Assembly (NCBI GenBank): GCA_000091205.1
Contig: AP006500.2
Source: Cyanidioschyzon merolae
Lineage: Eukaryota
DNA length: 64,000 nt
Direction: 5' to 3' (one strand)
A model generated the notes under the pieces. It was not told the origin of the DNA. It ran no database searches and saw only the letters and a list, made by a program, of their open reading frames with translations. Numbering within the stretch: position 1 is the stretch's first letter; each line of letters opens with the position of its first letter. A program made the translations under genes and the position numbers. This document shows positions 15-60,741 of this stretch, in pieces.

Positions 15-719
15 ATGATCGTGTACCTGCTCCGTATCTACTTTGCGTTGAACAATTTGCGCATGTGCGCTAGCCTTGTCCGGACGGTGGAGTCACCGGG
101 ATTCCCGCCATTAGATGACGCGTTTCCTCTCGACCAACGGGTGACTTATCACTACTTTGTGGGACGCATCGCGCTGTACGAGGATCGGTACGTGGAAGCG
201 GAAACGCATCTCGCATTCGCGGCTCACCACTGCCCCGTGCGATACGAACGCAACCGTAAGCGGATATGGACGTATCTCGTACCGGTGCGACTGCTGCAGG
301 GTCGTTTGCCCAGCGTCCGGCTCCTTCGTAAGTACGGACTACGTGTGTATGAACGGCTGCGTGAAGCTGTTATCTATGGGGATATTCGACAATTCGATGA
401 TGTACTGCGTAGACATGGTGAATTCTTCATTCAAAGCGGCCTGCTTTTCACGGTTGAAAAACTTCGTCTGATTGTGTATCGGAATCGGTTTCGCGTTGCG
501 GTTCGTTTACTGAATTCGACTCGCATACCGTTGGCGGCCCTGCAGTGCGCCTTAACGGATCCGAAACCCGCACTTGATGAGCTGGAGTGCCTGGTCGCGA
601 ATCTGATCTATCGCGGCTTTATTCGCGGGTACGTCTCTCACCAGAAGAAATACCTTGTGACGAGTGCAAAAGACGCTTTTCCGGATATAGCACGAGTTTC
701 ACCTGGTGTGCTGCGCTGA
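15..719 (+). CDS. PCI domain protein, PCID2/CSN12 (Thp1)-like, C-terminal part; gene begins upstream of the window
   Basis: The translation aligns along its length with the PCID2/CSN12 PCI domain: YHYFVGRIALYED..AETHLAFAAHHCP, NRKRIWTYLVPVRLLQGRLPS, LRKYGL, IYGDIRQFDDVLRRHGEFFIQSGLLFTVEKLRLIVYRN, LVANLIYRGFIRGYVSHQKKYLV. The first Met of the ORF is internal to the domain, so this is a 5' partial. Confidence 0.8.
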   Translation: MIVYLLRIYFALNNLRMCASLVRTVESPGFPPLDDAFPLDQRVTYHYFVGRIALYEDRYVEAETHLAFAAHHCPVRYERNRKRIWTYLVPVRLLQGRLPSVRLLRKYGLRVYERLREAVIYGDIRQFDDVLRRHGEFFIQSGLLFTVEKLRLIVYRNRFRVAVRLLNSTRIPLAALQCALTDPKPALDELECLVANLIYRGFIRGYVSHQKKYLVTSAKDAFPDIARVSPGVLR

Positions 720-3700
720 TACGCGAGCCACCTTCCGAAGCTGCATCTTCGTCTCCCATGCCGATGACATGGAGATGGATCGGTGAATCGGCAGCGCATC
801 CGGGGGCCTTCAACCGCTCGCAGTGCGCTATCAAACAGAAACTGCGGATCACGCACGACGTGTTCGATTCATGTTTTCGTCGTGTATGCGATGTGGCGAC
901 GCTGCTATCGTGTCGTGACGCGTCTAACAGGAACGCGTGTCCAGTCGATGAAAGTTTCCGCATTGGGCAGAGCGCGCTGGCGGGCGATCTCCGTTGCATG
1001 ACCCTCGTTTGCACCGACTTGGTATACGGATCTGGATGCAACTGTTCGGCCATGCTTGATGCGGTGATTTCGATTCCCCATGCCCAGACTCGCGTTAATG
1101 AAGCGGGAAAGTGAGAACGCCTCTTTCCGGCAAATCGGCGGATGATTCCGGGAGAATGGAGTGAGACAGTTTTCCCTGGAGTGACCGTTGCGGGCAGTCG
1201 TTTGCAGGCCAACGTACGTGCTGTGCGAGTCCTCGTGGGCGTCGTTTTTTATCCTGATGAATCGAGGTGACGATATACTTCAGGTACTGGGGACAGCGAA
1301 TGTCAAGAGCACCTCGGCAGCAGCTGCTCTTGGACCATACTCGGTAGTTTCCAAAAACGGAACAATGATATCGTTCTCCAGTAGGCCTGGAAACCCGTTC
1401 GCGGTGTATGCGTACAGTGTACCAGCTCTGGTGGACTCCTGAATGGTACCATACGTGTGCCTCGTCCCAGGTGGGAACAAACGCCCGCCTGTACTAGGCA
1501 CAGATTTTTGCATCAAAAGTCTTCCTCGATTCAGCACAACGCACATTCGGGGTAGCAAACGATTCTCTCAAAGGTTCGCTCGATACAAAGCTTCTGGACG
1601 CTCCAATAGCGCGATTCATTTCCGCATGTTGATCGCGGCGCCCAAGTCTCGGTGCAGAAAGCGCCTGCGCGCATTGCGACTGGTATTAGAATCACGTCAT
1701 CGCAAACCTGTTACAAGCGATTGCCTCGCGAGCTGACGTTCGGTCAGCATACCGTATACCAACTCGGTCAACCGGCTCTGTTTCATTGTCTGCGTCTGGG
1801 CCTGCTTCAGCGAGAACCTGTGCTCGTGTTGCGTGTATGCCGTCCTCAGCGCATCGATGGGCATAGTACAGAATCGATTTCTCCATTCGTAATCGGCTCT
1901 CGTTGAAGATGCAAGCGTGCAGGCCCTGCGCGCTACAGCAAGTCTAGCGCGATGCACGGCCATAAAACTAGGCGGCTGGTCGGTCATAGCCCTTTCCAAC
2001 ACGTGGGAAAATGCTGGCGAATGAACGTATCATACCCCTGTACAACCGCAGCAGCTGGCGACCCCAGCGCGAACGCATGTACTCCTGCCAAAGATCGTCT
2101 GTGTGGGTCGTTCCGACGCTCGTGTACGATCTGAACGAACGGAATGTGGGATCCCTTCCTGTCCAATACGACGCTCAGTGCGTCAAGAATGGGGCCCCGG
2201 CGCTGTCACTCGGCGCGGTGGTGTGCCCGCTGACCACCATGACCATCATTATCACCACGCCCGATTCCCGATGATGCCGAACCCTGGAAAAATTAAGCAA
2301 CTTCATCTGCTTTTCGTAGAGGTATTTGGTGTCATCCTTTTGATAATGAGTCATTGCGATCACCATGATGTTTTCCAAAGCCCGGGTCGAAACTCATTCC
2401 CAAGTCTGGGACCTCATCCACCTCGCTGCGTGGAAAATGAGTATCGCTGCTGGACGCTGGCACGGAATTCACATGCTGCATGCAGATGATCACGCGGGAG
2501 GTCCCCGTGGTCGCTGTGAACTTCTATCCATATCCACGCTGTAAACGAGACGCCTCGGACGAGCTCCCGCGATGCACTTTGCAACCTTGTTCCAATAGTT
2601 CATACTCGCTTGCAGGGACGAGATGCTTCTTTGTCTTCTTTTTTCTTCACGAGTTGGAATGGGTTTGGTCGCTGTACTCTATTCTCGTTTCCTCCTTGGG
2701 ATTCAGACGGACTTGCTCCACGCTGAAACTGACACTAGCCTCTTCTATGTAAATATCCACTATTCCTCAAGAATCTTTTTGTCATGTTTTAAGCAGCGAG
2801 CGCGCTCACGGGCTGAAGCGCGCTTTCCGTCTCGTCCCAGCGTACAGGAAGAGGAGCAACAGAGCCGTTCAGGGCTGCTCAAGGCTGGGAGCCACTTGTC
2901 GATGAAGCTCAGTGGCACAGATGCGAGAGACTTGCCTATCGATCCGTGAGCATAGCCATAGCGGTTCACAACAATGAAGACGACTCCAACTGCATGGTGC
3001 CGGTGAGTATAGGCTTGTACGAAGACGAGCTCGACACGAATCACAACTGCCTTCTCATCGACTGCTATTAACCGCTGGAAAATGGGGTTTTCTAACAGAA
3101 GAGCAGAAGCGTATGGGATCGCAACACCTCGAGGAGTTCTTCAACGAAGGTTGCGATGTAGAGCGCTCCTGTCAGTTTGGCGACTTGTGGCCGACCATGC
3201 GACTGAATCGCACCCGGGGCTGACGATGACGTCACTGCCACTTGTCTCTATTTTACGACCTGCGATTTGTCGCTCTTTGAGAATCCAAATGCTGGTCTAC
3301 CATTGCTCCCGAATACAGTCTCAGCAGGCGAGACGAGCACCCGTTTCTCATGCGAGAGAGTTTTGCGGTTCCGTACGACATCGATCGTGCGCTGTTCAAC
3401 GCAAGACCATCGCTCAGAGAACCGCGCATTTCCCCCCAGTCCATCGGTGTCTCTTCATCACCGCTCGTATGACCAGGACGGAAATTTCACATCCTCTGGA
3501 TTGTTTCGTAGTATTTTATCTGAGAACATCTGGAACGGAATGGACTGTCGATGAGGAGGTCGTTTAATTAGAGTTTGATACGTTCGGTTTTGGGCACTCA
3601 TTGTTCAGGATACCGACCAATAGAGTGGTGATTCATTCACCTGCTGACCCTGGAATATCTGGCTCAGACCATTGCAACCCATTTTCCGAAAACGGCCTGT

Positions 3701-4031
3701 GACGGCATAATTCCTTTCCGCGACCTTTCTCCCATCTACAGAAAACATGTCGTCACTTGAATACCTGCGAGAAAAAATCAAACCAAAACAACAAGGCGTC
3801 CTAGTACAGGTATTCTGGAACTCACCGTCCTGAGTATATCGGCATTGCACAAGATCGGGGCGCTGTCGTTGGAAAAATGTCAATGTCCGTCTTGGCACTG
3901 GAATCAGCTCGACAGAAATCGAGCTTGGCTCGCCTGCTGCGTCGGAGCCAGCAGCGAATAAATATGAAAATGCCCGAAAAGGCATCCCAGGTTGCGGGTC
4001 GTTTGTTGCCACTTTCGCTTCGAGCTGATCT

Positions 4032-5339
4032 CTATCGGATTCGCGTGACGCTGCCAGAGACACGCAAGGTCGCAGCGAGTCTTGCGCGCGTAATCGCTCC
4101 AGCGCTCTCCTTACTCGCTCGCGAGGACCTGGTTTCAACTTCAGTGTTCGGCTGCTCGGGACGTAGATTCTCTGTACAGATGTCGAACGAGAGCAGGTTG
4201 CTGACGTCCTCCTTGATGAATATTTCAGTTTCGCTTGGTTCGACGCCGCCGAAACTCTGCGCAACCTCGCGTAGTCGCTCAGCTTTATCTTTCAGAGCGG
4301 GCAAACGATGGAGCAGTTCAGACATAAGTTTCCGTACCGTCTCAACGCGTTGGAGGACTTGCTCCTCAAGCGCTCGTTTTCTCCCGTCCGACAGTTCAGT
4401 ATCAGACTCATTGTCTGATACCAGGTCCTCGAACTGCGCGTTGGAGAATACTGCCTCGGCCTGTAACGCAGTCACCTGCTGGGCGAGTCGCTCGGCCTGT
4501 GCTCTGACCAACTGTTCGGCTGTGGCACAGCGTTCCGCTCGTAACCGCCGCAAGTATTTCTCCTTCTCAATAATAAGGGCCTCGAGCGTTTTCACTTTTC
4601 CACGAATCTCATTGTCTTCTTCTTCTTCCGGAAAGGACGCCTGAACTTGAGCGAAAACTACACAGTTCTTACGCAAGAGCTCTTCAAGGGCCGCAGCTGT
4701 CGCACGCAACTGTTCTCGTACCGCCTCGCGACGGCTTTCTGGAAGTAAGTAGCTTTCTCGAACGCTGGGTTGCAGTGCTTCATCAACAGCGTCATTAAAG
4801 CACTTTACTGCCTCGGTGATGACCGACTCGCTGGGCAGCACGACGTGAGGCTCTCGCAGGTAGGGCGCGGTCTCCATAAGCACCGGGTTCGTAGTCAGCG
4901 CCGGGAATTCAAATACGGCGTAGAGACCGCGCGCATCGCCTGCGCGTGCCGCACATCGCGATGCAGCGATGCAGCGATGCGAGGCGTCTGCACGAGCGCC
5001 ACGTACAGACGCGCCTAGCACCGCAAGCCTGGTGGACCTCTGTTCCCGCCACAACGACTTTTCTGGAGCCTGTTGAACGTCGTGAGCTTGGGAGAGGAGC
5101 GGAATTCTCTTCCCCGGGCTAGTGATCAGTATCGACGCTCCGGAGACTCTACTTGGATGGATCGGTCTCATACCAAAAGAATGCGCTGACGTTGCTTCGC
5201 GTGCAGTGCGCTGCAGTGGCGTGCCGCTGGACTGCTTCGATTGGCAGGCGCGTTCCGTGGATGCGCGTCCTGAAGAGGTCGCACGATCTGTCTTCTGGTT
5301 CTCGTGGAAATGCACATTTGGAACTGGTGGGACGCTCAC
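4032..5339 (-). CDS. hypothetical coiled-coil protein (no recognisable domain)
   Basis: 435-aa ORF with long heptad-like E/R/L/A-rich stretches (EEQVLQRVETVRKLMSELLHRLPALKDKAERLRE and similar) and an S/T-rich N-terminus. Supported by length only. The antisense ORFs 3605..4264 and 3877..4644 overlap it and are treated as spurious. Confidence 0.4.
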   Translation of the reverse strand: MSVPPVPNVHFHENQKTDRATSSGRASTERACQSKQSSGTPLQRTAREATSAHSFGMRPIHPSRVSGASILITSPGKRIPLLSQAHDVQQAPEKSLWREQRSTRLAVLGASVRGARADASHRCIAASRCAARAGDARGLYAVFEFPALTTNPVLMETAPYLREPHVVLPSESVITEAVKCFNDAVDEALQPSVRESYLLPESRREAVREQLRATAAALEELLRKNCVVFAQVQASFPEEEEDNEIRGKVKTLEALIIEKEKYLRRLRAERCATAEQLVRAQAERLAQQVTALQAEAVFSNAQFEDLVSDNESDTELSDGRKRALEEQVLQRVETVRKLMSELLHRLPALKDKAERLREVAQSFGGVEPSETEIFIKEDVSNLLSFDICTENLRPEQPNTEVETRSSRASKESAGAITRARLAATLRVSGSVTRIR

Positions 5340-14849: not shown

Positions 14850-15165
14850 TCTAAGTTAGAGACCAAGTCGAGAGATTTCGATCCGTCTACGCTCCGTTCA
14901 TGGGAAACAGGGACGCACTCTTCACCGCAAGCGATCGCCGCGGTGACTCAAGTCCGAGTCCAAGACCCGTTTCCATGCAAGCGCACAAAACAGGAGCCTC
15001 GGGGGCCATATCCCTGGAGAGGTATCATGCAGCTGCTGCCGGTGCTGGTGCTGGTGCAGAGTACCGTTTCACATGTGGCCACATAGAGAGGAGGACATTT
15101 CCTTCGATCAGAATCTACGCTCTGACCGGACAAATTCAGTGACCTTTTCACATGAGATTGTCAGC
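14850..15165 (+). repeat. dispersed intergenic repeat family, copy A (~320 bp)
   Basis: Hand alignment with 23500..23800 and 35347..35690 shows shared blocks: gatccgtctacgctcc, gtgactcaagtccgagtccaag, ggggccatatccctggagaggtatca, agagaggaggacatttccttcga, catgagattgtcagcgagtcg. All three copies are in the same orientation. Confidence 0.6.
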
Positions 15166-23499: not shown

Positions 23500-23800
23500 A
23501 CAAAGTACGGAAGTGCTGTCTGAAGCGGGCGAGAATGCTCGATTCTTTACGCTCCCTCTATACACAACAGTGGCGTACGCTTCACCGGAGGCGATCGTCG
23601 AGGTGACTCGAATCCGAGTCCAAGCTCCCTTGTCATGCAAACAGAACAGACTGGATCCTCTGGGAGCGTTTCCCACGTGAGGTATCGAGCATCGTTGGAA
23701 TCCCGGTTCGTCGATGACCATACAGGTAGACGTATTTGTCTTTCGAAAGGAATCGATTACGATTTAATGTGAGGATTCCAGTAACTTTTCGTCATGAGCT
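23500..23800 (+). repeat. dispersed intergenic repeat family, copy B
   Basis: Aligns with copies A and C: ttacgctccc, ttcaccggaggcgatcgtcgaggtgactcgaatccgagtccaag, ctgggagcgtttcccacgtgaggtatcgagc, cttttcgtcatgagcttctgaaacagtcgacc. Confidence 0.55.
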
Positions 23801-39643: not shown

Positions 39644-40117
39644 TCTGACGTCGGCAGAATCCGGAACGTCTCCAGAACGCGCCACTGGTACCCGTGGCGA
39701 CAACAGCGGCAGAGCAGGTGCGCTCTTGTGCAGACTGTTCAGTACCGCGGTCGCGATGCTACCGCTGGCGCTAGCCACAGGGTACCCATGTTCATTGAAT
39801 GGAATGAGGGCTTGCGGGCAGTCCTGGCGCCAACTGCCTGCAATCCGCAATGTCGGCTTCGTGCGCACGTATGTCACTTCATGTGCACGGCACGCATGCG
39901 GCCTATCGGCAGACGCGCGTTCTCTGTAGCGGCTCGCTGCCTCCGAAATCTAAAGCCCATGTTTTAGTTTACCTCAAATGATACATAGCTGTCGAGAATG
40001 CTGCGTACCGGAAACATCCAAGTACCTGGAGCGAAAGTCACGGAGCACGTCTTGCATCCCAGTGGCAACCTGGAAGCGTCAACTCCCAGGGGAAAAACCA
40101 CCACACGGGGCACACAC

Positions 40118-40400
40118 CATCACCGCCTTTCGAAAGTCGAACGGCAGCAGTGTACAGTAGTGGCGGCAACCGCGCCCTAGACGAAACGTCTCCAACCGAC
40201 GTGCAGACGCCTCCCGGTTTTTCTCGACCGAGCACCCACTACTGCTTCCAACTTCTTTTCATATAGTTCCACTTTGAAAGGTTATCCAATAAAGTTCTCT
40301 CTTGTCGACTCTGGAGGTCTCTTCTCCAGCACCGCACATTTCCTTATATTGATAGCGGCATTAAAGTCTCGGTTCACGAATTCCATCCGTTTCTTGCTAT
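40118..40400 (-). ncRNA. candidate omegaRNA / right-end region of the Fanzor-like element (prediction only)
   Basis: The ~164 nt non-coding stretch 3' of the stop (40118..40281) is about 85% identical to 54601..54786. Both copies end at the same point with catcacc, where similarity to flank ends. A subterminal hairpin ttcga-aag-tcgaa lies at 40124..40142; in the second copy it is cgttcga-aag-tcgaacg. In TnpB/Fanzor systems the guide RNA overlaps the ORF 3' end and reads through this terminus. Confidence 0.3.
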
Positions 40401-42540
40401 CACTTGTTGTACTAACCAATGCAAGTAGCCCTCGCACTTTTGCCCTCCTCTCCATTTGCTCCTCCGTCAGCGGTCCGTACTTTGCTATTTCCTCAGGATT
40501 CCGCTGGCACTTTTCCATCCCGACCCTTCGAAGTGTACACCCCAGCTCGTGGTGTGTATAGGACGTTCGGAACTCATCCACAGGTATCGTAAAGAGACGC
40601 CTTGCGCACTCTTTGTACGCTCTCGTCGTTGGAGCTGGCGTAGTTCCTTTTAGGGTCTTCCATCGCCCTGCACCGTACGCTACTACGAGCCTCTGATTTT
40701 CATTCTCCTTGAGCGCGCTCAACTGATTGAAAAAGTTGGCGAACGCCCGCTGCCTCCCACCGTATAGATGCATACACAGACGAGCCCACCGGGGCTTGGT
40801 ATACTCCTCCCACAGCGCATCCCAATGGGCAACACGAACTCCCATGGATTTCCGGAAAGCTTCAAAGTCGGCTCCTCGGCTCGTCACCTCGCTCAACGCT
40901 TCCAGGTGATCCTTCATTCCTGAATTCCAAGTCTCGATTTCCTTCCTCGCATTCATGATTGCCGATTCTCGATAGTATCTCGCTCTCGAGAATCTCAACA
41001 GACGCATATCTTTCTGACGTAAGTTGCCGTCAGTACCATCTTCCGCACGCTTCGGTGCTGCGACGGCTATAATATTCGTATTTCCAGGGTCCGCGCCAAC
41101 GATAAAGTCGTTATCCTGCACTTTCTGCTTCTCAGAGCCCGCCTTGTTGTTTTCTTCATGCTTCGTCGCGTCTACGACAAGGTCGTTATCCTGCACTTTC
41201 TGTGTGGCAGGATCCGCATCCTTCTCATCTCCATGCTTCGTCACGTCAACGATAAAGTCGTTATCCTCCACCTCCTGCGTCGCAGGACCCGCCCCTTTGT
41301 TTTCTTCATGCTTCGCCGCGTCAACGATAAGGTCGTTGTCCTGCACCTCCTGCATCACAGGATCCGCCTCCTTGTTTTCTTCATGCTTCGTCACGAGCGC
41401 AGCCAAGGGCGGAACTGGACGATCTTTCTTCAACCGCCAATAGCGTATACACAAGGCTACTCCATCGGTTTCGATCAACCCAATGAATACCTTCTTCTTG
41501 CTCACTTTGAGACGTTTGAAATCGAAGATGCTCATCCAGTACGTCTCCCGGTTTTCGCCGGTGAAGTCCTCCCTGCTAAAATCGAACTCGGGACTGATCT
41601 CCCTCATGACGCCATGAAGGATTCTGGAGTCGATAGTCACAAAATGTGACTTGATGTTGCCCAACGGAACCACGTTGAAGCGCTTCCCCATTAGGAAAGC
41701 CTTCCGTCTCTCCCACTCTTCATTTGTCTCTTCACTCAGCATCACCTCTGCCTTGCGTTCGATGTCACGATCCAGAAACACGAAATACCGCAGGACGAGG
41801 CGATAGTATCTTTCCTTCTCTTTTTTCAACGCTAATATCTTGTCTGTTGGATTCACCAGCCCCAGTCCCGCACGATCCTCTTGTATAACCGCACGGATCG
41901 TAGAGGCTTCATTGGTGCTCACCTTTGACGTCGTCTTGTCGACAAATTCGACCTCATCTTCACGCTTGCGATCTTTCATGATGCCATTGATAATCGCCCA
42001 TTTCCCATTGCGAGAGATGCCCGAGTAGAGTGCAATCACAGCGCGTCTCATGAAACGTTCGAGGTTCACTGTCAAATGGTTCTTCAGATTCGTGATGTAC
42101 TTCATGGGCCTATATGTGTAAATATCCCGGTCACCCTTGTATCGAGTACCATTGAGGCTGTAAAAGGGATGTTTTTCGTGGAAGACATCCACCCGCTCAT
42201 TTTCCTCCCGCGCTTCCTCTGTACCAAGCGTCAGCTGACGAATAAAAATCTTGTCGAAAAACACGTGTGGAATCTCGACCGTTTCGATGGGCGTCACGTC
42301 GCGATACATCTCCCTCTCCAAATGCATCAGTCCTGACGACGCCTTGAAAATACTCTTGGAGTACGAGTCCACACGTTTTTTGATAGCGTCTCGCAACTTT
42401 TCCTTGTAGGGATCCTTGATATGTCCAAGAAGAAAGGTTTTCACAACCATCTCGTCGTACAGTTGTCTTTCTTGCCGCCTTCGACGTAGGGTATCCCCCT
42501 TTCGGTTCTTCTTCTCTTCCTTTTCTTCTGGACTAGACAC
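40282..42540 (-). CDS. Fanzor-like protein (eukaryotic TnpB/OrfB homolog; putative RNA-guided RuvC endonuclease), intact 752-aa ORF
   Basis: RuvC-I-like [19 protein letters not shown] (Asp codon at about 41089..41091). C-terminal Zn-ribbon-like segment [20 protein letters not shown]. RuvC-III-like [10 protein letters not shown] (RDxNAAxNI-type; Asp at about 40366..40368). Basic NLS-like N-terminus [17 protein letters not shown]. The RuvC-II Glu is not at the canonical position ([10 protein letters not shown]), a rearrangement also reported for Fanzor1. Two further fragments of the same family occur in this window. Confidence 0.8.
41085..41385 (-). repeat. 4x tandem 75-bp in-frame repeat inside the Fanzor-like ORF
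   Basis: Protein repeats: [102 protein letters not shown]. The repeat is also obvious at nucleotide level (gtcaacgataaagtcgttatcctgcac...ttcttcatgcttcg). The last unit carries the real RuvC-I motif. Confidence 0.85.
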
Positions 42541-42739
42541 TGTTTTTTGTTTTTTCTGGCAGCCAGCGACACTGGGCCTCCAGGATCGTCGATTTGCTTT
42601 TTCATAACTTTCCTTTTTTTAGTTTTTTTGGAAAAGAACGCTCCCTCAACGCCTCTGATATAAACAGCGAAAGAAAACTTGAAAAAACTAAACTGAGGGT
42701 TGAAATATAACTGAACTGAAAAGTATACTCTGCTGTGAC

Positions 42740-44137
42740 TTTAACGCAAATACAACGTGCACTTGAGAGCAACACGCTCAAGATCGCGATCCCGTTTCCC
42801 TTCAACAACGACATGCGCGTCGTATTTCATGCCTCCCAGATATGGAGGTGCGCGTATCGACCGCGATGCCCCCTGGCACTCGGACGTGAACTCCAAATAC
42901 CCTCAATAGAAGCATTAGCAGCAGGCTGCCGGGCACGCATATGGGCCAAAGGGCCCGCCATGCGCACCTGGTTCAGTCGGATTTTCATGCAGACCCCAAC
43001 GCACCGCAAGAACTCTTGGACGAAATCGACGCAGATTTGGCTGAAGCGCCTCTTAGGCGAAAACATTCTCCCCAATCGTTCCCCAGAAATATAGAAGGCT
43101 CCCGCCGCCTGAAGCGAACGGTCCAAACAACAGTACGGGAATGTAGACATGCAGTCAGTCGCGCGAGTAACGCCGGCTTGACTCTATACCGGAACTACAG
43201 CCTAGCCTGTTCATGCACGTACTGGTGGGAGGCGCTGGAGTTCACGGGACTTGCTCGAGGTACACAGTGGCTCGCCAAAATCCGCGTTGGTGGCTTCTGG
43301 CTACCAGCACCGGCTCTAAGCCGTATAGGAACACTGGAATCGCACTGGGAATCACACTGTCCCTGCTATCGAGACGAAATCCCCGAGACCCTGACATATG
43401 TAGGCGTACAGTGCCCGCGCTGGAAGCAGGAGCGCAGCGAGCTCCTTGAAGGACAGCAGCAGCTGGGCATCACCGTGATAGTCGAAGGCCGGACACTCAC
43501 TCTGAGTGTAGCACTGGCAACTGATGGTCCGCTAACCGAGCATCAGCGCTCATCAATGGCGAACAAACGCATATGCTACCTTCTAGGTGGAAGATCCAGC
43601 GGATCGGATGCGCACACGGGCTCAGTGCGCTCTCTGCGCCTACCTTCTGTGGTAGGTTTCAAGCACAAACCCGCATTGCCAACCGACAACAACGCATTCC
43701 ATGCATGATCACGAAGGAGAGAGGCGGCTCCCAGGATATATCCTAACAGCCAAGTTTCTCCAGCGTGTCGTGCAGCGAAGGCAAGCCTGCATCCGCAGAC
43801 TGTCCAAGCACAAACTGACGACGAGGCCCGATTCTACTTCAGGTGAAGTACGCCTCGAGCCGATGCCCTCTGGGGTATAGAAAAGCAGTTCTAGCTCTAT
43901 GAACTATCTGATCCAGCGGTACAGGTCCAAAGGTGGATACGGAAAGGCAGGTACTAGGCACACTCGATAGGACGTATGAAACGACCAGAACATCCGAGAT
44001 GAAGTATATGTACTGTAACTTGGAGGTAGGGTGTTTGATAGATACCTCACCGCGCTCTGAAAAAATATAAAGTAAGAAAAGAAAAATGCGCATAATCGGA
44101 GAACGCTGGCCCAAGTAAACGTCTTGTCAATGAAAAA
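42740..44137 (+). mobile_element. 5'-truncated LINE-like element; 3' UTR ends in a short A-run at about 44125..44131
   Basis: The ORF2 C-terminal fragment is followed by a ~430-bp 3' region. Its last ~250 bp (43880..44137) are found again, inverted, at 54845..55045 (catcaaacgccctacctccaag and tttttcttttcttac blocks), as expected for independent 5'-truncated copies. Confidence 0.5.
42941..43708 (+). pseudogene. non-LTR retrotransposon (LINE) ORF2 C-terminal fragment
   Basis: Contains the cysteine-rich C-terminal motif typical of LINE ORF2: HCPCYRDEIPETLTYVGVQCPRWKQERSEL (C-x-C...E-T...C-P...R). There is no RT core upstream in frame, so it is 5' truncated or frameshifted. Confidence 0.5.
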
Positions 44138-44181
44138 AACCCGCGCCGCCTGGCCGAGATTCATTGATTTTAGTCAGGGCG

Positions 44182-45612: not shown

Positions 45613-48504
45613 CAGCCGACCCGTAAACTCGTACCTGTCGTTGTCTTGCTGGGTATTGCGTAGAGCAGCGCGTGCCTCTCAGTCGCAACCTCTACACCTC
45701 TATACCTGTGGCCAGATCGGCGACACCAAAAACTCTCTCTGAAGCAGCTTTCAGGTGCTGCTTAAGCCTCCGTCCAGCGAATCGCGGCTGTGGAGCCTTT
45801 CGAGCACCAATTCTCATTGACGGAATCTCTGAATGAGATATATCGCTACAGTGCCAACGTTTGCGCACTCGCGTAGCGCTGTGTGCAGCTTGGCTTGCAG
45901 GTGAGGGTGCAGGTTTGTGTGCGTTTCCTTCGCTACGTCAAGGTAGTTGGTGTGTTGTATTTTGGAGAATACAAAAGCCATTGTGCTCTGCAGCTGGTGA
46001 GGATCGAAGCACTTCACCAGCTGGCACTCGTACAACGACTTTTTCCCACAGCATTTGTCGTGTTCCAAGAAAAGCTCTCGTGTACTTATAGACTACAGCA
46101 GCTGCGACTTTGGCGTGCTACAAGTTCGCAGTGCTGTGAGCACTCTTCGTGCTAACCCCGACTGGTGCGATTTCCGTAGAAAGCAGCGCTCGCACTCGCG
46201 TCTTGCGTGGCCGGGAAACGCATTCGTATGTCTTTGGACTGGCCGCCTGATATCCAGTTGTACCGCCACTTAGCCGCTCAGTCTGGTGTTCTTCTAGGGG
46301 ACTACATCTTGCTGCGGTTGCAAATTCAGGAAAGCAGCGGCTTTCTGGGTCGTGATCCGCACGCCGAACAAACTGTTGAAGAGGCGGTGCATCTGTGGGA
46401 GCGCTTGGAGAAATCCGTCGTGCTCTTGGGCCAGATAGTCGACAACGTTCATGGGGAAAGCACTCTGAAAGAGTCCCTGGTATTGGATCTTCGCAGCAAA
46501 CACAGTATTCTTGTCAACCTGAACCGTCTCTGGGACGATCCGCACCCTCAAGAGTGTGCACGGGTTCTACTGGAAGCGTGGAGCGGCTCCCTGTGGCTCG
46601 ATCCCGTCGCGAGCATTCTCTCTTCGTATCGTAGTTTGGTTGAGTCTGCCGACCGCGTATCTACGCCGCAGCGTTCAAAACGCCTAACCGCACCAACAAC
46701 ACCTTCTGCGAGAGCATCGGCATCCGACCTGAATGATTCGTCGAAACAGGCACCGCTGTGGAGTTACCTCCTGGACGACCATGGAACACGTCGTCGATCT
46801 GGCTCTCGAGCGCACCGGCCTTAAAACATCGTCGGCGTGAGAGAAGCAAAAGGTTGAGCGGCTCAAAAGCATCGAATCTGGTGGACACTTGCGCATTCAC
46901 TTCCCACAGTATGCGTTTGCATGCCGCAGGCGCCGCTGCAACAGTCAGAACTCGCATTTTTGCAGCCGCGTAATCGCTTCCATTTGGCGAATCCAACTTG
47001 ATTGTACCGGAAACCGGCACAGACCTGATTAGACCAGTGAACCTTGAAGATATCGTTCGTCGGAAGCCAGCATTTGCATCGCGATTCGTGTGGGAATGTG
47101 TTTGCTCATTCGCTGGCTCGATCATTCCAGTTAGAACAACGGCAACGACAACAACAGAAGTAGCCCCTGGCTTCTCATGGTATTGGTGATGGCAACGCAG
47201 ACACCGGATGCCGAGCTGCTTTCGCGCACAGTGTTCGTCGAAACGTGTTCCCTCGGCAACGGGACGACAAACGTCGTATCCCCAGGATGGTTGGAGCGTG
47301 ATGTCAGACTTACACGTTTCGTGCACAACTATGGTTTCCACAAAACAGCCCCCAGAACGAAGCAGAAGCCCTCGTCGATTCCGACTGCTCGCGCCTCTCC
47401 AATCGTCTGGTCGATGTGAACCCCACGTGTCACATCAAGATCCATGATATCGCAGGAGGCTCGTCTGCACTGTACGAGACGGCCTCCTCTGTGAGCTACC
47501 GCTGATCTCTGGGAACGAGTAGAACGCGTTCGAACAACATCGCGATAACGAGTAGCGGAGCTCGTTCCAAGCTGCTCGTATATAACGAAGAAATGCAAAG
47601 CAGTTTACGCGGACGAGAGAGTCCCGCGGAGTATCGGTCTGGATGCACTGTGTGTAAACGAGGACACATATCCAAGAGTCGTGCAGCGATGCTCATTTCC
47701 AACCGTTCAACGTAGGTCATGAGAGAGGCTTCGTGAGGCGCGTGAATCTCGCTTTGCAAGGCGTCATCGCTGTCGAAGCACTTCCACATCAGGAAGATGG
47801 AGCCAAATACCTAAACGGAAACCAGATGAAGCTGTTCGACTCTCACAGGCTCTGCTTCATCGAGAGTCGAACGTGATGATCGCCAGGATCGTTACGAAAA
47901 TGGAATAAAAGCGTTAGTGCCCGTCTTATCGTTCCAAGCGTCCTGTCGAGCAGCAAGGAAACGCGCTGCGCGCAACATTCAAAGCAAACATGAGCGTCCT
48001 AATGACTCAGACCGACGATTCCTGGGAAGCGTACATGAGGCTGCGCTGCTGTCGCCAACATATTCGGTCTCACGGAGGCAAGAGGCATGCATTCGCTAAC
48101 ATGCTCAATGATGCGGTTCACGACTTGTTCGGCAACCTATAACAGGGCGAAGTTCTCGCGACCGATGGGATGGCAAGCTGTGCGTCGCGCCAGTGGGGCA
48201 TGGCGTCCAAGCAACTGGGACCCATAGAATGTGCTTCGAATCTTGCACAGTATCAATGGAAAAACAGAAGCGCTTCATGAATCAGTCAGCAAAGGAGTAC
48301 CGCATTCGGATCTCCTCGCATCAGAATCGACTCCTTTCACCCCGCACACCAGTGAAACCCTGCGGTGCAGTGCTCGGGACTTAGCCGAGCCAGAAACCCC
48401 AACTCTTTGCTGTAAGACCTCACTGGCAATGTGCATATGCTGCATCTTGCGGGTCTCTGCATGATGCCGTCCCCGATACATGGAACAGATTGGTTAGCTT
48501 CTCT

Positions 48505-54600: not shown

Positions 54601-54845
54601 CATCACCACCGCCGTTCGAAAGTCGAACGACAGCAGTGTGCAGTCGTGGCGACCGGCGCCCTAGACGAAACGTCTCCAACTGACGTGCAGACGCCTCCCC
54701 GTCTTTTTGGACCGGCCACCTTCTACTGCTTCCAACTTCTTCTCATATAGTTCGACTTTGAGAGGTTGTCCAACAAAGTTCTCTCTTGTCAGCTCTGGAG
54801 GTCTTCTCTCCAGCACCGCACATCTCCTGATACTGATTTTTTTCC
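54601..54845 (-). mobile_element. solo 3' end of a Fanzor-like element (copy 2): last ~28 codons plus non-coding right end
   Basis: About 85% nucleotide identity with 40118..40362 in the same orientation. The stop codon of copy 1 (TAA) is CAA here. Similarity stops abruptly at about 54845, where a LINE 3' end begins. Confidence 0.65.
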
Positions 54846-55045
54846 ATTGACAAAATGTTTACTTAGGCCAGCGTCCTCCGATTCTGCGCATTTTTCTTTT
54901 CTTACTTTTTTTTCAGTGCGCGGTAAGGTATCCATCAAACGCCCTACCTCCAAGTCATATTCCCTATACTTCGTCTCGGATATTCTGGACGTTTCATACG
55001 TCCTACCGTGTGTGCCTAGTGCCTGCCGAGAGCGATAGCAATGGC
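54845..55045 (-). mobile_element. 5'-truncated LINE 3' end fragment, minus orientation, A-run at 54848..54854 abutting the Fanzor fragment
   Basis: The plus strand matches the reverse complement of 43880..44137: gtttacttaggccagcgtcctccgattctgcgcatttttcttttcttac...catcaaacgccctacctccaag...gtgtgcctagtgcctgcc. Confidence 0.55.
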
Positions 55046-56275
55046 GCCTGTAGCCCCGGTGCGGTCGCTGCACGGAGACAGAACGGCGTTGCCGTACCAC
55101 ACAGAGGGCGTCTGCCCGAGGAAATTGCGGTGAGGACGAGATTCCAACTCGCGCGCTCAAAGAGCATATCCTTGGCAGGCACACCCGTTAACCATGGCGG
55201 TACTTCTGGTGCAGAGGTATCTCCGGCACCTCACCGGTAATCCCCTAGGAAATCCGATAGTTTGGCGATTCTCCTTCCTAAATTTTCGGTAATTTGTATT
55301 GTGTGCCAAGTGCACGAGCCTATCTCAAACCAAATGGATTCGGCTCTGGCTCGAATCCATGACGGTCGAGGGTTCCATCAGTTAGCAGTTCGGATGTTCT
55401 TCTTATTTGTTAGCATTCGTGATGCTAAAGTGGAAAGGCGTCGTGTTCTACGATGATGTGGAAAATGCTTTGCTTGTTCCGATGCCTATTTGCGCGGATC
55501 GTATCCAGCGGAATTTGGCAGGGATGCATAGAGTCTATATCGAGTGAACAAGTCTGCCGCTCGCCCGGTGAACGCCCGCCATCGAGTGATTGCCTTTGTG
55601 CGGAAACCATGGGCCGGCATTTTTCAGCCCATGGGATACGGGCACTCCGCAGAGTTTCAAGTCAGCTGCTGGCTACGCGCGCACGCAGTTCACCCTGGAC
55701 ACAGTCGAGACGACGACGCCCCATGCGGTGACGGACGGGGCGCTCGACAAGGTTTAAAAACGGTGCAGACCGCATGAGGTTTCATACGGACAAACTTTGG
55801 AGAATACAGCACGAAAAAGTCCCCAGAGCAGTGTCGTTCAAACAAGCCGAGCCTTTCCTGGGTGTACTCGTTCAGAAACGGTGCGTCCCAGCGCGTGCTC
55901 ACTCCCTACCCGCTTCCTCGCACGATCAGCCAGCTGTTGCTCCAGAGGCGGCACTGCGCAGATTTTTCCATCATTTTCAGAACTTTGATTGCCACTGTTT
56001 CACAAATGCGCAGAAACCAGCACTCGTAAAGCGCCACTTCGTTGCCATCGCTTCTGCACTTGAGCCCCTACTGCGCTGCAGAGTGGATGCCGGACGGCGC
56101 GGTGAGACGCGGAGCGCGCGTAAAGTACATAGTTCGATGATCAACTACGTTCTTTCATCAAGGCCAACAGTCAACTTCGCTGGTTTCCGGTCTAACTGTT
56201 TCTGAGTGCTGTTCAGAGCGATCATCCCTTGGGTAGCAGGAACTCGAGCAGTTCCCGAAATACAAGCCCTGGACG

Positions 56276-60292: not shown

Positions 60293-60640
60293 TTGATTTT
60301 CAAAATTAAAGACCCTAAGGCATGCGCCGAGTGTACAGTTCAGAACATCGTTATGGAGAGCAGGCAGCGGAGTGCTGAGGACATAGAAAAGCACGGAGAG
60401 CTGCCGGAGCACCAAACGGCACAGAGGGCGCGAGTTCTTGGACTCCTCGCACTGACCAGTTCAACCAATCGCAAGAAACACATTGAGTTCATGAACTGAG
60501 ACTTTACCGCCGCCATCAATATCAGGAGATGTGCGGCACTGAAGAAGAGACCCGCGGAGCTGATGCGAGCCAGCCTTGTCGGACAACCTCTCAGTGTCGA
60601 GGTGTATAGGAAAAAGCTGAGGCTGATAACAGACAGCCGG
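60293..60640 (+). pseudogene. diverged, frameshifted C-terminal fragment of a second Fanzor-like gene (copy 3)
   Basis: CAECTVQNIVMESRQRSAEDIEKHGELPEHQTAQRARVLGLLALTSSTNRKKHIEFMN is about 50% identical to the copy-1 segment [57 protein letters not shown]. After a stop and frameshift the RuvC-III box reappears as DFTAAINIRRCAAL. The downstream block gggaggcgtctgcaagtcgg matches the copy-1 non-coding block gggaggcgtctgcacgtcgg. Confidence 0.55.
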
Positions 60641-60741
60641 TCGAAAAAAAGCTGGGAGGCGTCTGCAAGTCGGTGTATGTATGTGCTCTATGATCGCGAA
60701 ACGTTTTATGCCCACCGAGAGGAGTAACGCAGCGTGACTGC

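Follow-up and report, generated by a model that had tools for sequence, protein, structure and literature searches.

A chimeric relic of a Fanzor1 3' end and a LINE tail in Cyanidioschyzon merolae, and the family-wide association to which it belongs

How did the very end of a Fanzor unit come to lie base against base with the truncated tail of a retrotransposon, with the poly-A of the retrotransposon at the seam? This question is raised by positions 54601..55122 of a 64,000-nucleotide stretch of Cyanidioschyzon merolae DNA (contig AP006500.2), which as a whole we call the window. The minus strand carries there a 5'-truncated 3' tail of ~285 bp (54838..55122) from a retrotransposon without long terminal repeats (a non-LTR retrotransposon) of the long interspersed nuclear element (LINE) type, its A-run (54837..54843), and the last 237 bp of a CMe-1A-type Fanzor1 unit (54601..54837; reference 2513-2751), which we call copy 2. 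What lies here, in the intergenic region that separates a WD40 gene from a RUS-domain gene in C. merolae 10D, is a chimeric relic without function; it probably does nothing now and, taken alone, is a relic of an ordinary kind, left by two repeat families already described. It is also a clean, base-resolved example of the C. merolae Fanzor1 family physically tied to a LINE, and the LINE–Fanzor association is real, family-wide and no coincidence. As to the event that formed the relic, we tentatively favor a LINE insertion into a resident Fanzor unit that also removed part of its target.

The junction and its Fanzor half

Comparison of the window with itself by BLASTN aligned 54601..54837 with 40115..40353 in direct orientation (87.0%, 239 bp, E 7e-80), the end of a full Fanzor unit that we call copy 1, and aligned 54838..55027 with the reverse complement of 43946..44139 (87.1%, 194 bp, E 4e-64), part of the LINE fragment beside copy 1. 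The two blocks abut at 54837/54838 with neither gap nor overlap, as base-level alignments agree, and the contiguity for which a preliminary description of this locus had proposed a dot-plot or BLASTN check is thus confirmed. That description rightly saw a copy of the Fanzor end here, but the copy ends at 54837 and takes in 23 sense codons of the copy 1 open reading frame (ORF) plus the stop position, not 28 codons, and the switch of homology that it placed at 54845 lies at 54838. The A-run that it saw at the junction is present, as seven T at 54837..54843, the first of which is shared with the Fanzor codon ATC and can be assigned to either element; sequence and alignments identify the run as the LINE poly-A. 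The feature does not end at 55045, since LINE-tail homology continues past the BLAST limit at 55027 to ~55122 (285 bp): tail copies at metagenome loci, which bear L numbers here, align up to 55121/55122 (L026 3108..3405 at 83%, L056 at 95%), and an nhmmer tail profile matches 54838..55124 (E 2e-82). The BLAST match stopped at 194 bp because the copy 1 LINE tail has diverged in its middle.

The Fanzor fragment and the LINE tail share one orientation and meet in a filler-free join, at which the LINE poly-A is fused to Fanzor unit position 2513, while the Fanzor 3' terminus is intact and coincides with the 3' boundary of ~56 flank-independent copies. No target-site duplication (TSD) surrounds the copy 2 LINE piece, where the preliminary description had suggested looking for one, and none flanks the whole 54601..55122 unit by TSD search and inspection. 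Self-BLASTN of the window and a protein-level search found no Fanzor sequence on the far side of the LINE piece, and no poly-A follows the Fanzor end. Gene spacing around copy 2 is unchanged in the orthologous contigs L086 and L087, of which the aligned one, L086, is 99.3% identical with copy 2 included; neither an empty nor an intact orthologous site was found in them. A simple LINE insertion inside a Fanzor copy, as first proposed, is therefore not shown, since the TSD, the rest of the Fanzor unit and an empty site are all missing. The copy 2 junction was found at no other locus and is a single event, and because it is common to Yellowstone populations, in which the locus is 99.3% identical, the event is not very recent.

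The Fanzor frame persists in copy 2 as a remnant of 58 codons (ISIRRCAVLERRPPE...WRRFV; 54661..54837, minus strand) that ends at TAG according to its translation and a codon census across the family. At the codon where copy 1 has TAA (40282..40284; 54766..54768 in copy 2), 47 of 56 copies carry CAA and two carry TAA, and the commonest stop in the family lies 35 codons beyond. CAA is ancestral, and the TAA of copy 1 is a premature stop produced by a C-to-T change that leaves its ORF 35 codons short; the TAA/CAA difference taken earlier for stop-codon loss in copy 2 is real, but its direction is reversed. The usual ORF of the family reaches well into the structured 3' end. Nor does the label of an older Fanzor copy suit copy 2, whose Fanzor end is 91.5% identical to the leave-one-out family consensus and ranks first of 56 (median 86.3%; copy 1, 88.1%). 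Its LINE tail, at 87.4% to its own consensus, is average.

In Fanzor/TnpB systems the structured 3' end encodes the scaffold of the guide RNA, and the 3' end of copy 2 is positioned and shaped like such a scaffold. Folding of 54601..54768 (minus strand), 168 nt that begin with the CAA codon and reach the terminus, predicts a long-range stem that encloses inner hairpins, and a terminal hairpin of 16 perfectly paired bp, with a minimum free energy of -76.2 kcal/mol (z = -5.8, reached by 0 of 200 shuffles); the equivalent end of copy 1 is unremarkable (z = -1.4). A RIBOSUM-scored fold of the non-coding part gives a family consensus structure that is 86% paired. Covariation in the 3' end does not rise above its shuffle control (98/500), RNAalifold returned no structure on the full-width 3'-end alignment, and Rfam holds no match for the 3' end; we treat the region as a candidate guide-RNA (omega-RNA) scaffold, not a proven one.

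Two repeat families and their recurring association

The identity of the left-hand element rests on copy 1, a full Fanzor unit of 2751 bp (40115..42865, minus strand) whose limits are set by homology with independent loci and whose ORF (40282..42540, minus strand; 752 amino acids) carries the derived premature stop. An AlphaFold model of the protein built from 22 homologs (pLDDT 63, pTM 0.53) was compared with PDB structures by Foldseek: the top seven matches are all Fanzor1 (SpuFz, PpFz and GtFz, solved by cryo-electron microscopy; E 1e-13 to 3e-10, TM 0.42-0.64), and every match outside Fanzor1 has E > 0.02. The protein carries GADPGNTN, with D484 invariant in the 22 homologs, and a second 10-residue motif; the RuvC-II glutamate was not located. 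Sequence searches gave no significant Pfam match for the ORF (only a fragmentary Cas12f1-like_TNB at E 0.25) and, by phmmer and a 22-sequence profile, no match among PDB sequences; homologs carry a weak precomputed PF26935 (DUF8286). Copy 1 is thus a Fanzor1 protein whose membership, as modeled, rests on fold and motifs and not on sequence profiles, and the Fanzor-element 3' end that the preliminary description recognized on the left of the junction is upheld by a fold that matches Fanzor1 structures only. Within this ORF, 41091..41395 comprises four tandem 75-bp repeats whose copy number differs among family members, and the repeat region is predicted to be disordered (amino acids 373-472, pLDDT ~22).

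The family fits CMe-1A, as matched by published description and not by Repbase consensus. CMe-1A comprises ~150 C. merolae copies that are ~80% identical to a ~3-kb consensus, some with intact ORFs; it has no terminal inverted repeats (TIRs), its TSDs were not determinable, it was left unclassified, and its 5' 635 bp are a separate element, TE-N2_CMe (Bao and Jurka, 2013, Mob DNA 4:12; PMC3627910). The family in the window likewise occurs in this host, shows ~75-86% identity among copies, lacks TIRs and has a ~670-bp 5' module. No inverted repeats join the two ends of copy 1 (40115 and 42865), and the gene tables of the loci that were inspected, without a systematic search, showed no ORF for a transposase. 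The family does not have the marks of a cut-and-paste DNA transposon, with no TIRs and no TSD signal in seven composites; Helitron-like ends were considered and rejected, given the lack of TC...CTRR and a constant end that is the wrong one. Like TnpB and IS200-IS605 elements, the Fanzor family has a putative RuvC nuclease gene whose 3' end overlaps a non-coding end, predicted to be structured, that reaches the element terminus, and it lacks TIRs and TSDs; unlike them, it shows no TnpA-like transposase (again with no systematic search), truncation on the 5' side only and LINE-capped 5' ends.

The right-hand element is a non-LTR retrotransposon, as its reverse transcriptase (RT) domain, poly-A, variable 5' truncation and TSDs establish, so that the earlier assignment of a LINE 3' end with poly-A at the junction holds. 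The longer copy at L005 has RVT_1 (E 5.6e-25) and the usual non-LTR motifs, and the LINE ORF remnant beside copy 1 (42941..43708, plus strand; 255 amino acids) has homologs that carry PF00078. Proteins of the same family in C. merolae 10D are annotated "retroelement, alive", and relatives at ~28% identity are APE+RT LINEs. Free-standing tails end in CAATG, CCATG or CAACG followed by A6-9, sit in unrelated flanks and have 5' cut points at ~75, 139, 172 and 298 bp and beyond, with a TSD of ~15 bp at L056 and plausible TSDs at L015 and L026a. We rejected the ~290-bp tail as a discrete unit resembling a short interspersed nuclear element, in that upstream sequence is homologous in most copies and 5' ends vary. 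The sampled LINE family appears to lack APE: the N-terminal 480 amino acids of the L005 copy have no Pfam match at E<=1, five copies are collinear over this endonuclease-less region, and no homolog of the same family carries PF03372 or PF14529, whereas the 28%-identical relatives do. Gene calls are fragmentary, and intact copies may exist elsewhere. At L005 714..3423 (LINE reference 696..2135) only FVSWNICG, which is short and resembles the beginning of an APE, has been kept, and a low-complexity stretch rich in lysine comes next.

Metagenomes were scanned with the C-terminal 100 amino acids, which yielded 79 loci out of at least 356 confirmed stretches, and onto all 79 we mapped a Fanzor reference and a LINE reference and ran the tail profile. 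LINE-derived sequence stands on the 5' side of the Fanzor unit at at least 18 flank-independent sites, and BLAST of 400-bp flanks found all 19 key sites mutually unrelated. In short composites, which resemble TE-N2, a T-run and a reverse-complemented tail of ~290 bp are followed by a ~380-bp spacer and then by Fanzor sequence from position 1 (L002, L061, L011, L026/41, L030, L068/70, L069/83 and L039; on the minus strand, L010 and L080); this tail and spacer form a module of ~670 bp upstream of the Fanzor unit in at least nine independent copies. Long composites join the LINE 5' end to the same Fanzor base, position 1 (L004, L005, L033, L066, L084), and a type represented by copy 1 joins LINE reference 3025 to the base used by the long composites. 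In the window this last type is the LINE fragment at 42873..44139 (plus strand, antisense to the Fanzor gene; LINE reference 3025-4287, poly-A 44133..44139), whose truncated 5' end meets the 5' end of the Fanzor unit, so that copy 1 differs from TE-N2-type copies in carrying another LINE piece at the same junction. The preliminary remark that LINE material adjoins both Fanzor copies thus points to an association that recurs well outside the window, but copy 1 and its neighboring LINE form an arrangement that is standard in the family, and this LINE is not a second nested insertion of the sort proposed for copy 2.

Other loci hold the two elements in the sense arrangement, in which a tail with poly-A is followed after 19-161 bp by a Fanzor unit (L080, 19 bp, Fanzor from position 13; L034, 137 bp, from 73; L010 and L022, 161 bp, from 248), and at L065 internal LINE sequence (2924-3308) meets Fanzor position 1394 in the sense orientation. 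Some ~56 copies have a sharp Fanzor 3' boundary, whereas the 5' side shows no such sharpness: a fourth type of copy carries on upstream past position 1 and is cut at points of its own, -43, -60, -125 and at least -450. A permissive profile search (E<=10) never found this upstream Fanzor sequence beyond the poly-A of the retroelement in composites, which indicates that the retroelement stands in place of the Fanzor 5' region and is not an interruption within it; insertion of the LINE or TE-N2 into a longer Fanzor element, with the remainder past the poly-A, was rejected on this result. When fragments were restricted to those that were neither the cause of a locus's retrieval nor cut by contig ends, seven kept the 3' end without the 5' end and one showed the opposite, the latter being half of an internally deleted copy. 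Some apparent truncations are in fact internal deletions, older subfamilies or pieces of larger repeats, internal deletions being known at L074 (Fanzor 1-33 continues at 1822) and L008/L061 (383 continues at 1090). Fanzor units of this family keep a constant 3' end and lose 5' parts at many different points, often being capped by a LINE-derived replacement. Seven whole composites gave no TSD signal (matched 5.1 versus mismatched 5.0, p = 0.33), in a test that is weak for copies of such age, and a likeness, seen by eye, of the left flanks of composites to the final 12-15 nt of the Fanzor unit failed a permutation test.

Further arrangements were observed in the same survey. Head-to-head Fanzor 3' halves, with both 3' termini facing outward, occur at L025 (7944..10462) and L027 (20..1717) and also at L028, L060, L076 and L021; in one example, reference 1337-2714 lies reversed beside reference 1379-2742 in a palindrome-like form. 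Same-orientation tandems consist of a Fanzor 3' end or fragment, an interval of 0.8-2.9 kb and the next unit (L013 9963..14404, L023, L038, L032, L025). L013 and L039 share 716 bp upstream of a fragment that starts at reference 2244, so that this fragment belongs to a larger repeat. Strains or species that are ~85% identical (L038 4571..6640, L037 3..2085, L014) have one Fanzor insertion in common beside a short-chain dehydrogenase gene, from which it follows that some insertions are older than the divergence of these lineages.

Both repeat families are already published, as is a survey-level link between Fanzor1c and LINEs in which a transposon no more than 10 kb away counted as associated (Jiang et al., 2023, Sci Adv; PMC10530073). 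In contrast to that survey, the C. merolae junctions are resolved to the base and recur at independent sites. CMe-1A and TE-N2_CMe were both left unclassified as published, whereas the 5' module seen here consists of a T-run and then a reverse-complemented LINE 3' tail, and the TE-N2-like module thus has the look of a LINE derivative that is antisense and has lost internal sequence. Base-resolved junctions, this view of the TE-N2-like module and the replacement of Fanzor 5' regions by a LINE are not described in the literature that we examined.

How the copy 2 junction may have formed

Our preferred reading, to which we give a probability of about 0.45, is that copy 2 records a target-primed LINE insertion that struck a resident Fanzor unit and deleted part of this target. 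The reverse-transcription machinery of the LINE would have made the junction: a 5'-truncated LINE copy would have entered the resident unit by target-primed reverse transcription between GCT and ATC, in the putative RuvC-III motif, and both the TSD and the 2.5 kb of Fanzor unit lying upstream would have been lost in the insertion. Such a deletion fits because both the TSD and the Fanzor remainder are absent at copy 2. Among L1 elements, 5'-truncated insertions with target-site deletion are known, and copy 2 resembles them in a poly-A joined to the target, heavy 5' truncation, the lack of a TSD and the loss of adjacent target; it differs from them in that its deletion is inferred only and in that the sampled LINE copies have no recognizable APE domain. 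Several points weigh against this reading. The deletion is deduced from absences (of TSD, remainder and empty site) and was not observed, large target deletions are a minority outcome of L1 insertion, and the apparent lack of an endonuclease domain in the sampled LINE copies would leave the nicking of the target unexplained. Measured each against its own consensus, the Fanzor end is also less diverged (91.5%) than the LINE tail (87.4%), an ill fit with a LINE entering an older Fanzor, and a template switch in one step accounts for the missing remainder without any extra deletion.

Such a switch would yield a chimeric retrocopy: reverse transcription would start on the 3' end of a Fanzor-sense RNA, jump to the poly-A of a LINE RNA and copy 285 nt of it, the first template being a Fanzor mRNA or a processed guide RNA with its 5' end near 2513, and no full Fanzor copy would ever have stood at the site. 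We consider this origin unlikely overall, though several points speak for it. The two parts are co-oriented and joined without filler at the LINE poly-A end, no Fanzor remainder is required, and the Fanzor part is the least diverged of 56; across the family the 3' end is constant while 5' cut points are continuous, other sense joins of LINE to truncated Fanzor exist (L065, L080, L034, L010/L022), and the head-to-head 3' halves (L025, L027/28/60/76) resemble the products of twin priming, in elements that have no TIRs and no transposase ORF in the gene tables inspected, which were not systematically searched. U6-L1 chimeras, which are retrocopies made by RT template switching, are comparable in that both of their parts derive from RNA, point the same way and meet at the end of an RNA, but at copy 2 the order is reversed, with the LINE upstream, and the 3' part has no poly-A and no TSD. 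The TSD that this origin predicts around 54601..55122 was not found; a Fanzor 3' end without poly-A would need specific recognition for priming; and other 3'-end-only fragments start at 2085, 2195, 2244, 2318 and 2326, which does not suggest a defined RNA 5' end at 2513. The recognition of several apparent truncations as internal deletions, older subfamilies or parts of larger repeats also counts against it, as does the missing TSD signal of the composites, within the limits of a test that is weak at their age. It is less probable still, and we think it improbable, that a sense arrangement of LINE or TE-N2 tail, a few bases and a near-full Fanzor unit later lost 2.5 kb, from the end of the poly-A to Fanzor position 2512. 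That precursor exists at four independent sites (L080, L034, L010, L022) and internal deletions are known in the family (L074, L008/L061), but the breakpoint of the deletion would have had to coincide with the final A of the poly-A, and the Fanzor side (GCCGCT followed by ATCAGT) offers no microhomology. Least of all do we expect the retained 3' end to be a stand-alone guide-RNA gene under selection that loads a Fanzor protein, such as that of copy 1, in trans. Such a role, very unlikely as we judge it, would suit the best-conserved 3' end of 56, the contrast between the copy 2 fold with its terminal hairpin and that of copy 1, the preferential retention of 3' ends in the family and the 99.3% identity between Italian and Yellowstone populations. 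This identity is, however, no higher than that of neighboring sequence, covariation stays at the level of shuffles, nothing points to a promoter or to transcription, and detection is biased towards the most conserved part of the element. Transduction of 3' sequence was rejected: no second poly-A lies past the Fanzor sequence, and the homology goes no further than the normal terminus.

A broader idea, which we regard as doubtful, is that the CMe-1A Fanzor family spreads partly as RNA by way of the RT of the resident LINE and that copy 2 is a one-step template-switch chimera. Spread as RNA would jointly explain the constant 3' end, the continuum of 5' cut points and LINE replacement in both orientations, and also composites bounded by a poly-A and a Fanzor 3' end, the head-to-head pairs and the lack of TIRs, of a TSD pattern and of a transposase. 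A bolder extension is that the seemingly endonuclease-less LINE would depend on breaks made by the Fanzor nuclease. If RT mobilization proved true, it would be the first demonstration that a Fanzor/TnpB lineage moves by way of a retrotransposon, with a bearing on what Fanzors do for their host elements, and because C. merolae is genetically tractable and has a small, complete genome, the idea is directly testable.

Genomic setting and further Fanzor pieces

The two host proteins beside copy 2 are identical to BAM82341.1 and BAM82342.1, from a 1.25-Mb chromosome of C. merolae 10D. Hot-spring metagenome contigs are nearly identical to the region (L001 at 99.4%; L086 at 99.3% over 13.7 kb), with copies 2 and 3 included. 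Copy 3 (60331..60674, plus strand) is an older, diverged Fanzor 3'-end fragment, 70% identical to copy 1, that covers amino acids 668-752 and some of the 3' end. An older subfamily includes this copy, which shares ~570 bp of upstream sequence (68%) with L016 (3875..4006), and part of it with L019 (6562..6971), so that copy 3 is no simple random truncation. More diverged Fanzor-like relics lie at 1571..2372 (minus strand) and 47834..48109 (plus strand), with 30-38% amino acid identity to residues 489-750 and 515-605 of copy 1, and the window thus holds five Fanzor-related pieces within 64 kb of a gene-dense genome. It also contains an unrelated pair of 149-bp direct repeats at 14878..15026 and 23539..23686, which are 72% identical.

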